DNA from: Verrucomicrobiota bacterium
Lineage (GTDB): Bacteria; Verrucomicrobiota; Verrucomicrobiia; Chthoniobacterales; UBA10450
Reading direction: 5' to 3'
DNA: 64,000 nucleotides
Assembly: GCA_003220155.1 (NCBI GenBank)
Contig: QHRO01000239.1
Coordinates: 22 to 64,021, forward strand
Made by a program: the position numbers and the translations under genes. This document shows, piece after piece, positions 9,381 through 46,579 of the stretch (within the stretch, counting starts at the first letter, position 1; every line of letters starts with the position of its first letter). The notes beneath the pieces were generated by a model. It did no database searches. It saw only the letters and a program-made list of their open reading frames with translations, and had not been told where the DNA came from.

Positions 9381-9463
9381 GTCATGTCGAGCGAAAGTCG
9401 AGACATCTCTCGCTACTCGTCTGTCACGAAGTTAGAGATTCCTCGACTGCCCTCGGAATGACA
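9381..9463. repeat. MITE-like inverted-repeat element (GTCATxxCGAGCGAAGTCGAG family)
   Basis: GTCATGTCGAGCGAAAGTCGAGACATCTCT ... AGAGATTCCTCGACTGCCCTCGGAATGAC. Confidence 0.75.
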
Positions 9464-12393: not shown

Positions 12394-13902
12394 CTAGCTT
12401 CCCAGAGCCCGCAGAAAATCGGCAAAGTTGGCGCTCTCGCGCATGGCGGCATTCAATCGCTTCAGACTTTCGTCGGCCGGTTCCGGCAGCGCGATACGTC
12501 GGGAACACCCGGCACCGGACAACACAATCTCATTCCATTGAATCGATTCGATCTGATCGGTGAAACGCGCAACCGCGCGCCCCCGGAAGAAAGCGCGTGT
12601 GGTTTCCGGAGGAGAAAAAATTGCGCGGCGAATCTCATCTTCGTTGACCACCCGCCGCATCGAACCCTGGCGCAGCAACTCATAATATAATCCGCGCTCC
12701 AGATCGATATTGTGATACTCGAGGTCAATTGCCTGCAGCCATGGATCGCTCCATTGTAATTTTTCCTCCTCCTGCAACTCGTTCAGCAGAAATTTTTTCG
12801 CTGCCCAATCCGCCCGATCGCGACATAACATCACGTCTCGCTCCAAGTCATTGAGGACGCTTTCCCATTCGCGCAAAATCCAACCGCGCTCCTCCTCATC
12901 GCGCTCGACCTTCTGTGCCGCGTTCAAATAAAGCCGCTGCACATCAATCGCGGAAATCTTTCGTCCGTCGCGCAACTCGATGATCCAATCATAATTCTGA
13001 TCGCGACTAATCGATTTCGCGGCGTCAATCGGTTGCGCGATTTCCAACTGCGGCGCTTTGCCGCACTCGATCAAATCCAGCACCAGCGCGGTCGTCCCCA
13101 GCTTCATCGCCGTCGCCCATTCACTCATGTTCGAGTCGCCAATAATGACGTGAAACCGGCGATACTTGTTGGCATCGGCGTGCGGCTCATCCCGCGTATT
13201 CACCAGCGGGCGGCGATTCATCGTGTCGATGCTGACCAGGACGCTAAAGAAATCCGCTCGCTGCGAAATCTGAAACACACCGGGCTGACCGGCCGCGCTC
13301 TCCGCTTCAATCCCCATCTTGCCGGCGCCGGCAAAAATCTGTCGCGTGATCAGAAACGGCAGGGCGCCCGCGACGATGCGATCCCACGGGATGTCGCGCC
13401 GCATCAGGTAATTATCGTGGCAACCGTAGCTGTGACCGAGAAAGTCGGTGTTGTTTTTGTAAAGCCGGACGTGCTCACCGTCCGACAAATGCGCATTCCG
13501 GCGTCGCGCGCATTCGGCCAGAATCCGCTCGCCCGCTTTTTCCTGGGCCACAATCTCACGTAACGTCGTGCACTCCGGCGTGGAATATTCCGGATGAGCG
13601 TGATCGTTGTAAAAACGCGCGCCGTTCGATAACACGAGGTCGCTCTTGATTTCCTGAAAGGTCAGCGGCCGGTTTTTATCGATCTCATAGTAGGCCGATT
13701 CATCCGCGTCCTGACGCAATTCTTTGGCCCGAAAACCGCGCGCATCGCGATGCGGATCTTCGTGGCCGTAATCCCATTTCATCAACGCGCCGTGCTCGGT
13801 ATAACTGCGCACCAGCGCGATCGATTCCGCGACCACGTCCACCGACTCCGCGCCGTCCAGCGTGATCCCATATTCCGTCTCCAACCCAAAGACGCGTTCC
13901 AT
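12394..13902 (-). CDS. Pup/UBact ligase-deamidase family protein (Dop/PafA type)
   Basis: MERVFGLETEYGIT N-terminus and a 502-aa length (closer to Dop than to PafA). The start was moved from 13998 to the ATG at 13902, because the extra 32 codons are translated heptamer repeat. Confidence 0.8.
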   Translation of the reverse strand: MERVFGLETEYGITLDGAESVDVVAESIALVRSYTEHGALMKWDYGHEDPHRDARGFRAKELRQDADESAYYEIDKNRPLTFQEIKSDLVLSNGARFYNDHAHPEYSTPECTTLREIVAQEKAGERILAECARRRNAHLSDGEHVRLYKNNTDFLGHSYGCHDNYLMRRDIPWDRIVAGALPFLITRQIFAGAGKMGIEAESAAGQPGVFQISQRADFFSVLVSIDTMNRRPLVNTRDEPHADANKYRRFHVIIGDSNMSEWATAMKLGTTALVLDLIECGKAPQLEIAQPIDAAKSISRDQNYDWIIELRDGRKISAIDVQRLYLNAAQKVERDEEERGWILREWESVLNDLERDVMLCRDRADWAAKKFLLNELQEEEKLQWSDPWLQAIDLEYHNIDLERGLYYELLRQGSMRRVVNEDEIRRAIFSPPETTRAFFRGRAVARFTDQIESIQWNEIVLSGAGCSRRIALPEPADESLKRLNAAMRESANFADFLRALGS

Positions 13903-19212: not shown

Positions 19213-19283
19213 TAGAGATTCTTCGACTGCGCTCGGAAGGACAGGAAAAGAGATACCAGACCGCGGTCGGCGACCGCAGCTAC
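19213..19283. repeat. Solo MITE arm plus a GTAG-headed REP
   Basis: AGAGATTCTTCGACTGCGCTCGGAAGGACAG, then CCGCGGTC GGC GACCGCAG CTAC. Confidence 0.6.
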
Positions 19284-21264: not shown

Positions 21265-23022
21265 TCAGATCACACCGCCAAGATTCGCGCCGCGCTGAGC
21301 GGCATTCGGGCGCACCGGCGCAATTTTCACGACGTACTCCGGGTCGTAATCGATCAGCTTCAGCCAATCTTCCGTGATGTCCGTCGGCGGGAAAATATCA
21401 TTTTCCGCGTATTCGGCGTGAAAAGACATTTGCAAATCCTGTTCGGTGATGCCTTCGCCAACTCCGGGCGAAACATCCAAGGGCGTTTCCCTTAAGGTTT
21501 CATCGCGGGATCCCTCGACTTCGCTTGCGCTCCGCTCGGGATGACGGGCAGTTTGATTCGCGATAGCGCGCTTGATCGCCATCCCTTTTGCCCGCTCAAC
21601 CACCGACGCGATGATGGCGCCGCTAATCAGGTTGCCGCGATACAAAACTTCTTTGCGCCCGCTCCGCAATGTCACTTCCAGGAATTTGTTCTCGTCGCGT
21701 TTGGCAAATTGCCAATCCACCAACCGTTCGATCAGCTTTTCAATCGCCGCCCCAATATTGTCAGCTTCTTTGGCCAGCGCGCCGTCGTACGGTAAATCGT
21801 TAGTTAAGTAAATCCGGTAGATTTCCCGCGCCCCTTCCTTGTTCGGACGGTCGACTTTGATTTTCCGGTCGATGCGGCCAGGGCGAAGAATCGCTGGATC
21901 GATTAAGTCGGCGCGGTTCGAAGCCAGAATAATGACGACGTCGTTTAGTGAATCGATCCCGTCCATCTCCGAGCAGAACATTGGTACCAAAGTCGAGAGG
22001 ATGTTGGAGTAACGCGAGGCGCGCCGCGTCCCGAGAATACTTTCCGCTTCGTCGATAAACAGGAATGGCATGAACCCTTCCCGGCGCTTCTCCCGTGCGG
22101 TCGCGAAAATTTCGCGCACCATCCGCTCCGATTCGCCTACCCACATGTTCAAAATCTCCGGGCCCTTCACGTGCATGAAGTATTCGCGGACGTCTTTTTC
22201 GGCTGCTTTCTCGCGCAACTGCCGAGTCAAATTGTAAGCGGTCGCCTTTCCGATCAGCGTCTTGCCGCACCCGGGTGGCCCGTAAAGCAGAAATCCTTTC
22301 GGAGTCGCATGGTGAAATTTTTCGAACAAATGCGGATGCAAGAGCGGCAGCTCGATCGCATCCTTGATCGCTTCAATGGCTCGCTCCTGTCCGCCGACCT
22401 TCGACCAGGGCAGTTCCGGCACGTTATCGAGATAATGCTCGTGCGAGCCGGGTGCCGACATCATTTCCAGCGCCATGCGATAATTGGAATCCACCCGCAC
22501 TTCGTCGCCTTGTTTCAGCGCCGTTTTCGCCAGCTGCGCGGAACGTTGCAGAACTAACGATTGCGTTCCGTGTTCATTGCCGACGCGTAGTCGATCGGTT
22601 CCGATCACTTCGGTAATTTTCGTGACCGGCCCGGCCGGTTCGAAGCCGAGATCGCCCACGATGACGAATGCTTCATTCACCAGCACGCGGGTCCCCTTTT
22701 TCAACTTCGCCATCGGAATTCGTGGATCGACATTGCAGTAATAATCCGCCCCGCCCACGACAATGTGTGCCGTCTCCTTGCCGACGTTGCCGAGAAAAGT
22801 GCCGATGCGATTGGCCGGCGAGGTCACCTTTTTGATGACTTCCTCAAGTTTCTCGATCGTTTGGCGTGCTTCGATAAAGACTTCTTCGCGCTGGCAAATT
22901 TCCATGCGCAGGTCGAGCAGCTCGCGACGCACGGCGTCGCCGGGCGGGAGTGTCGCGATTAAAAGATCGATGCGATCGAGCAAATCGAATTCCCTTTCTC
23001 CCTCGTGGCGCTCGTCGCTCAT
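21265..23022 (-). CDS. mpa: Proteasome-associated AAA ATPase Mpa/ARC homologue
   Basis: N-terminal coiled coil, OB-like VGGADYYCNVDP...VLVNEAFVIVG, Walker A GPPGCGKT, Walker B LFIDEAE. The C-terminal region DITEDWLKLIDYDPEYVVKIAPV resembles Mpa but ends NLGGVI. Confidence 0.88.
   Translation of the reverse strand: MSDERHEGEREFDLLDRIDLLIATLPPGDAVRRELLDLRMEICQREEVFIEARQTIEKLEEVIKKVTSPANRIGTFLGNVGKETAHIVVGGADYYCNVDPRIPMAKLKKGTRVLVNEAFVIVGDLGFEPAGPVTKITEVIGTDRLRVGNEHGTQSLVLQRSAQLAKTALKQGDEVRVDSNYRMALEMMSAPGSHEHYLDNVPELPWSKVGGQERAIEAIKDAIELPLLHPHLFEKFHHATPKGFLLYGPPGCGKTLIGKATAYNLTRQLREKAAEKDVREYFMHVKGPEILNMWVGESERMVREIFATAREKRREGFMPFLFIDEAESILGTRRASRYSNILSTLVPMFCSEMDGIDSLNDVVIILASNRADLIDPAILRPGRIDRKIKVDRPNKEGAREIYRIYLTNDLPYDGALAKEADNIGAAIEKLIERLVDWQFAKRDENKFLEVTLRSGRKEVLYRGNLISGAIIASVVERAKGMAIKRAIANQTARHPERSASEVEGSRDETLRETPLDVSPGVGEGITEQDLQMSFHAEYAENDIFPPTDITEDWLKLIDYDPEYVVKIAPVRPNAAQRGANLGGVI
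21447..21545 (-). mobile_element. 99-nt MITE-like repeat inserted in frame inside mpa
   Basis: In the gene sense: GTCATCCCGAGCGGAGCGCAAGCGAAGTCGAGGGATCCCGCGATGAAACCTTAAGG...GGCATCAC. It matches the intergenic copy at 31582-31665 (GTCATCCCGAGCGAAGCCGAAGGATCCCGCAGAAGTTACCTTAAAG...GGGATGAC). It encodes HPERSASEVEGSRDETLRETPLDVSPGVGEGIT. Confidence 0.7.
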
Positions 23023-31573: not shown

Positions 31574-31581
31574 TCGTCCGT

Positions 31582-31665
31582 GTCATCCCGAGCGAAGCCG
31601 AAGGATCCCGCAGAAGTTACCTTAAAGCTTTCGCAACGGGATCTCTCGACTGCGCTTGGGATGAC
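31582..31665. repeat. MITE-like inverted-repeat element between nuoH and nuoG
   Basis: GTCATCCCGAGCGAAGCCGAAGGATCCC ... GGGATCTCTCGACTGCGCTTGGGATGAC. Confidence 0.8.
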
Positions 31666-31670
31666 CGTAT

Positions 31671-46423: not shown

Positions 46424-46579
46424 AATGTCGAGCGAAGTCGAGACATCTCTAGTTATTGTCCGAAAGTACCAAAGAGGAGCGGTTTCCAACCGCCGTTTGG
46501 TTAAAGCCGGCGGCTTGGAAGACGCCGCTCCTTTGTAAATACAAATAGCTAGAGATTCCTCGACTTCGCTCGGAATGAC
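46424..46579. repeat. Nested MITE-like element
   Basis: Outer arms AATGTCGAGCGAAGTCGAGACATCTCT and AGAGATTCCTCGACTTCGCTCGGAATGAC. Inner palindrome CAAAGAGGAGCGGTTTCCAACCGCCG...CGGCGGCTTGGAAGACGCCGCTCCTTTG. Confidence 0.8.

Follow-up and report, generated by a model that had tools for sequence, protein, structure and literature searches.

An In-Frame Palindromic Repeat in a Linker of a Verrucomicrobial Mpa ATPase, Belonging to a Family Dispersed Through the Genome

How does a conserved ATPase come to contain a stretch of sequence that looks like an intergenic repeat? This question is raised by a 64,000-nucleotide stretch of contig QHRO01000239.1 (assembly GCA_003220155.1, Verrucomicrobiota; hereafter, the window), in which a gene encoding an Mpa/ARC-type proteasome-associated AAA+ ATPase (mpa) carries such a segment. 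A preliminary description of the window took the segment to be a 99-nt repeat, resembling a miniature inverted-repeat transposable element (MITE), that had entered the gene in frame. In this report, we demonstrate the membership of the segment in a repeat family, its in-frame state, its lineage specificity among the orthologues compared, a series of alleles at the same site, the lack of constraint on the encoded peptide, and the presence of related insertions in other genes. We consider it highly probable that a selfish palindromic repeat inserted once, in frame, into a connector of Mpa, was tolerated and then decayed, and that the resulting alleles have been shuffled by recombination.

The sequence quoted in the preliminary description was found exactly at positions 21447-21545 of the minus strand, within a single intact open reading frame (ORF) of 585 amino acids (Table 1). 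It encodes residues H494-T526, HPERSASEVEGSRDETLRETPLDVSPGVGEGIT, in frame and free of stop codons. The identity of the host gene as mpa is upheld by Pfam, in which the protein matches Prot_ATP_ID_OB_N (E = 1.1e-19), Prot_ATP_ID_OB_C (5.1e-12) and AAA (6.3e-30). A tandem pair of OB domains preceding a single AAA+ module is the arrangement by which members of the Mpa/ARC group are recognized. The NCBIfam model TIGR03689 (pup_AAA) also matches (E = 1.6e-132), and its match ends at residue 491 (profile position 463 of 512), directly before the insert. Because the insert breaks the match at this residue, the score of 442.9 bits falls below the equivalog cut-off of 504.75. When the protein is aligned to the Mycobacterium tuberculosis Mpa structures 5KWA and 7PX9 (E of approximately 1e-96), 36 residues separate the helices that correspond to Mpa 518-535 and 541-558, whereas the corresponding gap in Mpa, from position 535 to position 541, holds 5 residues. 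The earlier statement that approximately 33 residues have no equivalent in the mycobacterial protein is therefore accurate. This alignment, read together with the account of the domains in PMC9599533, identifies the site as the connector that leads from the last helix of the AAA lid, after the beta16-17 hairpin, to helix alpha13 of the beta-grasp domain.

Repeats related to the insert are abundant in the genome of which the window is part (designated G000), a fragmented metagenome-assembled genome (MAG) of 3.35 Mb in 354 contigs. Arms of the type GTCAT[CTG][CT][CT]GAGC occur several hundred times. Used as a single nhmmer query, the insert finds 26 other genomic loci (E = 3e-7 to 1e-3); with an intergenic copy (31582-31665) as the query, 135 matches are obtained on the two strands taken together. 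We built a family profile from 66 full-length copies, from which the mpa copy was left out. Its consensus is an 83-nt palindrome, and its 354 matches on both strands merge into approximately 184 loci. The mpa copy scores 37 bits against the profile (E = 7.5e-9). The mpa segment is a member of a dispersed palindromic repeat family, and the nucleotide similarity on which the preliminary description relied is significant in formal alignment. The kinship that it proposed with other regions of the window was likewise recovered by the profile for three of the four regions, which matches 31582-31665, 9381-9462 (previously 9381-9463) and the arms of 46424-46579. The first of these folds as RNA at -49 kcal/mol (z = -6.8). 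No Rfam family matched at gathering thresholds anywhere in the window, this intact copy included.

Of the 99 nt originally delimited, 79 are recognizable as the element; they begin with the second base of codon R493 and finish in codon P519. The other 20 nt had been regarded as part of a diverged right arm. A comparison with locus L157, which encodes a 94%-identical Mpa, leads to a different assignment. At the orthologous site, L157 has a complete 93-nt element with both arms, GTCATCCCGAGCGGAGCGCAAGCGCAGTCGAGGGATCCCGCC...CCGGGATCCCTCGACTGCGCTCGGGATGAC, which terminates in ...CTCGGGATGAC; next comes C GGA GTT GGT GAA GGC ATC ACC, encoding GVGEGIT. Because the same flank follows the intact terminal ATGAC in L157, we place these last 20 nt outside the element. 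In alleles without the element, EGIT is conserved host sequence, and GVG is not found in clean empty alleles. Relative to L157, the window allele lacks 15 nt of the right arm (ACTGCGCTCGGGATG) and has a few substitutions, but is otherwise the same sequence. What had been described as greater divergence of the right arm is thus a deletion of its terminal 15 nt, and GGCATCAC, previously quoted as the right terminus, encodes the host residues G-I-T. The 37-nt pattern of the left arm is expected to have 0 chance matches in the window. The full allele of locus L012 folds at -60.5 kcal/mol (z = -7.8), whereas shuffled sequences fold as well as the window segment does (z = -1.05). In the window allele, the hairpin was destroyed by the loss of the right arm.

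To place the insert among orthologues, we used mpa loci obtained by a whole-genome search of 60 relatives; these loci came from 25 species within the genus and from 11 further genera of the family. Database names of the close homologues and of the repeat-carrying genomes indicate soil Chthoniobacterales or Candidatus Udaeobacter. In all the other family genera that were read, and in three members of the genus (loci L020, L025 and L028), the linker is empty, with six residues between the conserved helices in the form AIKRAIA-xxx-(D/E)EGI... (for example, AIKRAIANQH-DEGI...). On this alignment of orthologues, and given the 5 residues of M. tuberculosis Mpa, the insert is lineage-specific, as had been anticipated.

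Another concern is that mis-assembly at a repeated sequence might have placed the repeat in the mpa contig. The fragmented state of the MAG invites this suspicion, since repeats are classic points of mis-assembly. However, approximately 60 of the 120 closest protein clusters, derived from independent JGI, ENA and NCBI assemblies, have the insert at the same position and in frame. The GTDB representative genomes G017, G004, G011 and G002 carry it also, and the flanking reading frame is continuous. We regard an artefact as effectively refuted, with a probability that is practically negligible.

Across the genus and the 120 closest database protein clusters, the linker is highly polymorphic and its flanks are nearly invariant. 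The alleles extend from the full element, through forms with a truncated or decayed right arm, to short remnants and empty sites (Table 1). All nine mpa alleles that keep the left arm share the same orientation, the same reading frame and a 10-11-nt internal extension of that arm, a minority form that, among the 66 aligned full-length rows of the genome, only about 4 have. These shared features are good evidence for one ancestral insertion, and the sequences thus suggest a single origin of the insertion in mpa.

A further class of alleles has a different in-frame repeat at the same linker position, corresponding to 21447-21560 of the window. It occurs in loci L004, L005, L007 and L023 (the mpa genes of G009, G015, G016 and G005, respectively) and in approximately 38 of the 120 clusters. 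The linker peptide is of the type AVAGVADPG, with SADSAVAGVADPGFS in L004, L005 and L023 and VAVAGVGDPG in L007. At the nucleotide level, the allele holds GTAGCCGGGGTCG(C/G)TGACCCCGG, which has the GTAG-plus-hairpin form of a repetitive extragenic palindromic (REP) sequence, the hairpin being GTAGCCGGGGTCGSTGACCCCGG. A 23-mer of this repeat has 1-12 copies per genome in four of five genomes searched, where the counts include the mpa copies of G009 and G016, and reversed-pattern controls gave 0.

Substitution patterns separate the insert from its host. Outside the insert, the ratio of nonsynonymous to synonymous substitution rates (dN/dS) is 0.03-0.07, which implies that the ATPase kept its function once the insertion had occurred. 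The 25 codons of the insert have a ratio of 0.6-1.2, so the peptide itself is unconstrained. The linker also has a history of its own. Over their whole length, the mpa genes of the window (L001) and of G009 (L004) have 0-3 nucleotide differences per 60 nt and a divergence of 0.04 at fourfold sites, with the exception of approximately 200 nt around the linker, where they belong to different allele classes. In this tract, the window allele is common to G017 and G004, whereas the G009 allele is entirely different and is common to G015. This mosaic indicates that linker alleles shift between lineages by short-tract recombination and have a genealogy younger than that of the gene backbone. Such recombination explains their patchy distribution.

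The 83-nt consensus of the GTCAT family consists of two inverted arms of approximately 30 nt around a spacer of approximately 25 nt. Full copies measure 83-93 nt, have perfect terminal inverted repeats (GTCATCCCGAGCG...CGCTCGGGATGAC) and have no coding capacity. Each arm, of the form GTCAT-NNN-GAGCG...CGA-N'N'N'-ATC, makes a small hairpin on its own. Of 199 arms, 165 have complementary triplets directly behind GTCAT and directly ahead of ATC; in a shuffle control, the corresponding number averaged 54 and reached 71 at most. Four covarying triplet types are found (CCC/GGG, GTC/GAC, TCC/GGA and CCT/AGG). Full copies are bordered directly by pyrimidines at the left end and by purines at the right end. 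No adjacent direct repeat is present at the termini of 92 of 115 full copies, and direct repeats of 4-7 nt at offsets of up to 16 nt are no more common than in shuffled pairs of flanks.

REPINs are doublets of REP sequences that form hairpins and are mobilized by REP-associated tyrosine transposases (RAYTs); they are classically extragenic, and the canonical REP begins 5' GTAG. They were reportedly described by Bertels and Rainey in 2011. The family described here is similar in having two inverted hairpin-forming units of approximately 30 nt, a short spacer, no target-site duplication, hundreds of mostly intergenic copies, and a genome that contains genes resembling Y1 (HUH) transposases. Unlike REPINs, its arms begin with GTCA(T) rather than GTAG, copies lie inside coding sequences, and several of the Y1/RAYT-like genes are flanked by another type of repeat (see below). 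As an inverted doublet of hairpins without target-site duplication, the element resembles REPINs more closely than classical MITEs, and transposition may proceed through single-stranded hairpin intermediates. The label MITE-like thus applies only loosely. Like MITEs such as Correia elements and intragenic ERIC (enterobacterial repetitive intergenic consensus) sequences (PMC10969869), the element is small and multi-copy, has terminal inverted repeats, lacks coding capacity and sometimes forms in-frame fusions with host ORFs, but it generates no target-site duplication, with or without offsets, relative to the shuffled control. A parent insertion sequence with the same termini did not turn up, although no systematic search was made and the MAG is fragmented.

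That the family is mobile within the genus is demonstrated by orthologous sites that are filled in some genomes and empty in others. G000 and G009 have the copy at 31582-31665, and G005, G007, G008, G011, G015 and G016 lack it. The copy sits between two minus-strand genes (window 31574-31670). Where the site is empty, in G015 and G005, these genes overlap in an ATGA that serves as stop and start; where it is filled, TTCATT stands on both sides, so that the stop and the start codons are both kept. We considered this TTCATT as a target-site duplication and rejected it, since it seems to be a one-off arrangement that keeps the two codons. Exact 29-nt arms, and some full-length elements, are also found in MAGs labelled as Nitrospirota, Patescibacteria, Saccharimonadales, Thermomicrobiales and a deltaproteobacterium (loci L046, L071, L073, L078, L095 and L109), the deltaproteobacterial copy lying on a 2.3-Mb contig. 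These copies suggest either a cross-phylum distribution or contaminated bins and binning errors.

In-frame copies are not confined to mpa. We screened 30 family copies that span ORFs, and confirmed candidates by Pfam scans. Among the approximately 184 loci, at least seven coding insertions were confirmed (mpa and six others), or ten if three weaker candidates, with a Pfam match on one side only, are included (Table 1). The peptides inserted in the other genes are of the types VIPS.VEGSR...ARDD and GHPERS.... Two copies were not counted: one at C11:22015 lies between two UvrA-like reading frames and not clearly inside one, and one at C152:3461 is upstream of rtcB. Empty orthologous sites were established for mpa and for hemC. 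In a comparison with the hemC loci of relatives (L160-L178), the site is the loop that comes after the T.GD motif: G000 and the distant G002 have a family copy there, the closest relatives of G000 have a cleanly empty loop, and others have possible remnants (PSRTGVF). The distribution of the hemC copy is patchy, as is that in mpa.

The reading that we favor is as follows. A non-autonomous palindromic repeat would have inserted once, in frame and without target-site duplication, into the short connector between the AAA lid and alpha13 of Mpa, in an ancestor within a Chthoniobacterales (Udaeobacter-like) genus. Presumably because the connector tolerates length, the element would have been kept as a hydrophilic, probably disordered linker of approximately 30 residues in an ATPase under strong purifying selection. 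In-frame insertions and deletions would later have eroded it, in the window lineage by removing 15 nt of the right arm and with them the hairpin, and short-tract recombination would have shuffled linker alleles between lineages. The insert would thus be selfish DNA, for which selection filters open-frame insertions at permissive positions, and not an adaptive domain.

Several observations weigh against this reading. The first concerns a single origin. In a protein tree computed with the linker masked, each of the three clades of the genus includes alleles that bear the element, and the clean empty alleles L020, L025 and L028 are nested among them, so that a single insertion needs precise losses or allele transfer. 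The alternative is that members of the family with the extended left arm struck the same preferred mpa site independently in several lineages. Consistent with this, inserts from different clades are 80-85% similar, about as similar as unrelated family copies. The hemC loop is filled in two distant species but not in the nearest relatives of G000, and a second, unrelated REP family has entered the same mpa linker in other species. We nonetheless consider recurrent insertion unlikely. It does not account well for the orientation, frame and minority extension common to all nine left-arm alleles, the remnants make a coherent deletion series, and copies of the family have no common target sequence or target-site duplication. 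Moreover, the recombination seen between L001 and L004 accounts for the patchiness without re-insertion.

The second observation is that the nucleotides of the insert diverge 2.5-6 times more slowly than the fourfold sites of mpa, at all codon positions (3/75 versus 0.24, 14/75 versus 0.44 and 15/75 versus 0.51; binomial P = 1e-8 to 1e-4), while the 40 codons on each side have normal divergence. Simple neutral decay does not predict such slow divergence. Two processes that would fit are constraint at the nucleotide level and gene conversion by paralogous copies. A further proposal that draws on the slow divergence is exaptation: the peptide or the embedded nucleic-acid sequence would now be of use to the host, for example in tuning how the beta-grasp face docks to the 20S particle or as a signal in mRNA or DNA, and selection would maintain it. 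The persistence of the insert across many species agrees with this proposal, as does its position beside the beta-grasp domain, which touches the 20S core particle in M. tuberculosis (PMC9599533). On the other hand, the dN/dS values within the insert reveal no constraint on the peptide, and related species do well with empty, remnant or wholly different linkers while the remaining protein is nearly invariant. The hairpin has already been lost from the window allele, and a separate, younger genealogy of the linker tract is a simpler account of the slow divergence. We therefore judge exaptation to be very improbable and the younger genealogy to be the likely cause. Constraint on the hairpin was rejected as the main cause, because the window allele has no hairpin and the L001/L004 mosaic demonstrates that the tract has a genealogy of its own.

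The remaining points against a selfish insertion turned linker concern the mobilizing enzyme and the protein product. Of the 11 matches to Y1 (HUH; IS200/RAYT-like) transposases in the genome, none has arms of the GTCAT family within 1.5 kb, save for a loose proximity on contig C127. Among the eight Y1 genes whose flanks were read, several carry hairpins of the GTAG-type REP rather than the GTCATCCC family. A RAYT link for the GTCAT family was accordingly rejected. The insert is presumably transcribed and translated, and the predicted tryptic peptides of the insert-bearing protein would include SASEVEGSR, DETLR and ETPLDVSPGVGEGITEQDLQ.... The proposal that the insert may be a surface-exposed, disordered loop comes from sequence alignment and composition. 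An AlphaFold model, for which 34 close homologues were aligned, was poor (mean predicted local distance difference test score, or pLDDT, 40; predicted template-modeling score, or pTM, 0.28). From this low-confidence model, we used only the helix-coil-helix pattern around residues 465-541, which consists of a helix at 465-493, a coil at 494-526 and a helix at 527-541.

Table 1. Features of the window, alleles of the mpa linker, and repeat copies and transposase matches elsewhere in the genome. Locations without a contig are window positions; designations beginning with G, C and L denote genomes, contigs and loci, respectively.
Feature	Location	Strand	Evidence or remark
Mpa/ARC-type proteasome-associated AAA+ ATPase gene, host of the insert	21265-23022	-	Intact ORF, 585 aa; Pfam, TIGR03689, Mpa structure alignment
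Recognizable palindromic-repeat remnant (left arm, spacer, start of right arm)	21467-21545	-	Family profile, positions 1-68 of 83
Left arm GTCATCCCGAGCGGAGCGCAAGCGAAGTCGAGGGATC, including 10-11-nt internal extension	21509-21545	-	Exact pattern match
Flank beyond the element, codons G520-T526 (GVGEGIT)	21447-21466	-	Comparison with L157
Intact 84-nt intergenic copy, closest copy in the window	31582-31665		78.6 bits, E = 7.6e-22
Copy of related GTCATGTC.../...GGAATGAC subfamily	9381-9462		Weak full-length profile match, 20.8 bits, E = 8e-4
Copy of related GTCATGTC/GGAATGAC subfamily with foreign palindrome nested between arms (...GGAGCGGTTTCCAACCGCC...GGCGGCTTGGAAGACGCCGCTCC...)	46424-46579		Arms 18.7 and 17.7 bits
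Solo right arm of related subfamily, AGAGATTCTTCGACTGCGCTCGGAAGGAC	19213-19243		Sequence read; under profile threshold
Pup ligase/deamidase family gene (PafA/Dop type), functional context for Mpa	12526-13896	-	PF03136, E = 2.1e-165 at G000:C61:12547-13917
mpa allele: full element, both arms, peptide HPERS...RDPS(T/A)ALGMT	L012, L157		13/120 clusters
mpa allele: left arm retained, right arm truncated or decayed	Window, L002, L003, L006		47/120 clusters
mpa allele: 66-nt internal deletion between ATCCC direct repeats	L158		2/120 clusters
mpa allele: left arm fused straight to terminal ATGAC	L019		No separate count
mpa allele: left arm only	L016		No separate count
mpa allele: right arm with 24-nt long-arm variant, also in unrelated copies of the window's genome	L159		No separate count
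mpa allele: short linkers matching long right arm of L159 (AVRAGLADSPGMT)	L008-L011		Among approximately 20/120 other short-linker clusters
In-frame copy in lpxB	C2:4444-4561		Splits/lengthens LpxB Pfam domain
In-frame copy in class-V aminotransferase gene, cysteine-desulfurase-like	C126:15060-15161		Splits/lengthens Aminotran_5
In-frame copy in uvrA	C238:2424-2543		Between UvrA DNA-binding domain and C-terminal ABC region
In-frame copy in hemC	C270:1853-1936		Splits/lengthens Porphobil_deam (porphobilinogen deaminase)
In-frame copy in uvrC	C89:1178-1287		Splits/lengthens UvrC_RNaseH
In-frame copy in two-domain glyoxalase gene	C44:6089-6205		Between both Glyoxalase domains
Weaker candidate, ResB-like	C284:19486-19579		Pfam match on one side only
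Weaker candidate, ImuB-like	C315:3873-3982		Pfam match on one side only
Weaker candidate, GT2	C203:53340-53394		Pfam match on one side only
Y1 transposase match	C298:21508-21852		Among 11 in genome
Y1 transposase match	C80:27285-27569		Among 11 in genome
Y1 transposase match	C182:3472-3756		Among 11 in genome
Y1 transposase match	C127:1235-1537		Among 11 in genome
Y1 transposase match	C203:13673-13936		Among 11 in genome
Y1 transposase match	C351:9802-10068		Among 11 in genome

In its overall organization, the host protein is like M. tuberculosis Mpa and actinobacterial ARC, with a coiled coil, two OB domains, an AAA+ module and a beta-grasp region. Its C-terminal 45 residues still align weakly to Mpa 541-585. 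As in M. tuberculosis, genes of the Pup ligase family are present: the genome has two, one of them inside the window. A single match to the proteasome family PF00227 was found in the genome (C284:39988-40548; 20S or HslV). Unlike actinobacterial Mpa, the protein ends ...RGANLGGVI (21265-21290) and does not have the GQYL (HbYX-like) motif for docking to the 20S particle.

The closest behavioral parallel is with the Rickettsia palindromic elements (RPEs), for which in-frame colonization of conserved genes by palindromic repeats is a hallmark (Ogata et al. 2000, Science 290:347, as summarized in PMC10969869). In-frame gene insertion is known sporadically for ERIC and other MITEs (PMC10969869). 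The family reported here appears to work like RPEs, a likeness in behavior for which we do not claim sequence homology. Both are short, palindromic, noncoding repeats with many copies per genome, and a sizeable fraction of both lies in frame in unrelated conserved genes, where a hydrophilic peptide is added at fold-compatible positions of proteins under purifying selection. In the present family, intact copies fold with z values from -6.8 to -7.8, and several unrelated conserved genes are occupied. The differences are that RPE hosts are obligate intracellular alpha-proteobacteria, whereas the hosts here are free-living soil Verrucomicrobia, and that the elements measure 83-93 nt with covarying hairpin arms, as compared with about 100-150 nt for RPEs. 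In our literature search, we found no paper linking Udaeobacter to palindromic repeats, and Mpa was not found as a reported host protein. The mpa insert is a real RPE-like in-frame insertion, which extends an already known phenomenon to another phylum, to a host that is free-living and to a protein not previously found as a host.

Taken together, these results might be extended into a broader picture, which we offer tentatively and regard as rather doubtful. Udaeobacter-like soil Verrucomicrobia might be a second, free-living case of large-scale colonization of housekeeping proteins by hairpin repeats. Permissive positions, such as the lid/beta-grasp connector of Mpa and the HemC loop, might be recurrent landing pads for at least two unrelated families, with linker alleles traded among co-existing lineages by very short tracts. 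The inserts might then be semi-independent replicators, maybe kept as nucleotides and not as peptides.

In-frame colonization by palindromic repeats has mostly been viewed as a peculiarity of Rickettsia. Here, it involves at least seven domain-encoding genes, and three weaker candidates, in a very abundant group of free-living soil bacteria. The failure of a curated hidden Markov model of equivalog type on such a gene, as with TIGR03689, and the capacity of repeat-derived peptides to mislead annotation and alignment are of practical consequence. A position in Mpa that tolerates approximately 30-45 extra residues is useful for tagging or engineering the ATPase. Finally, the way in which selfish DNA becomes a protein linker can be followed at the mpa site in a natural series of unusual completeness, which comprises empty, full, truncated and remnant alleles as well as replacement by a second family.

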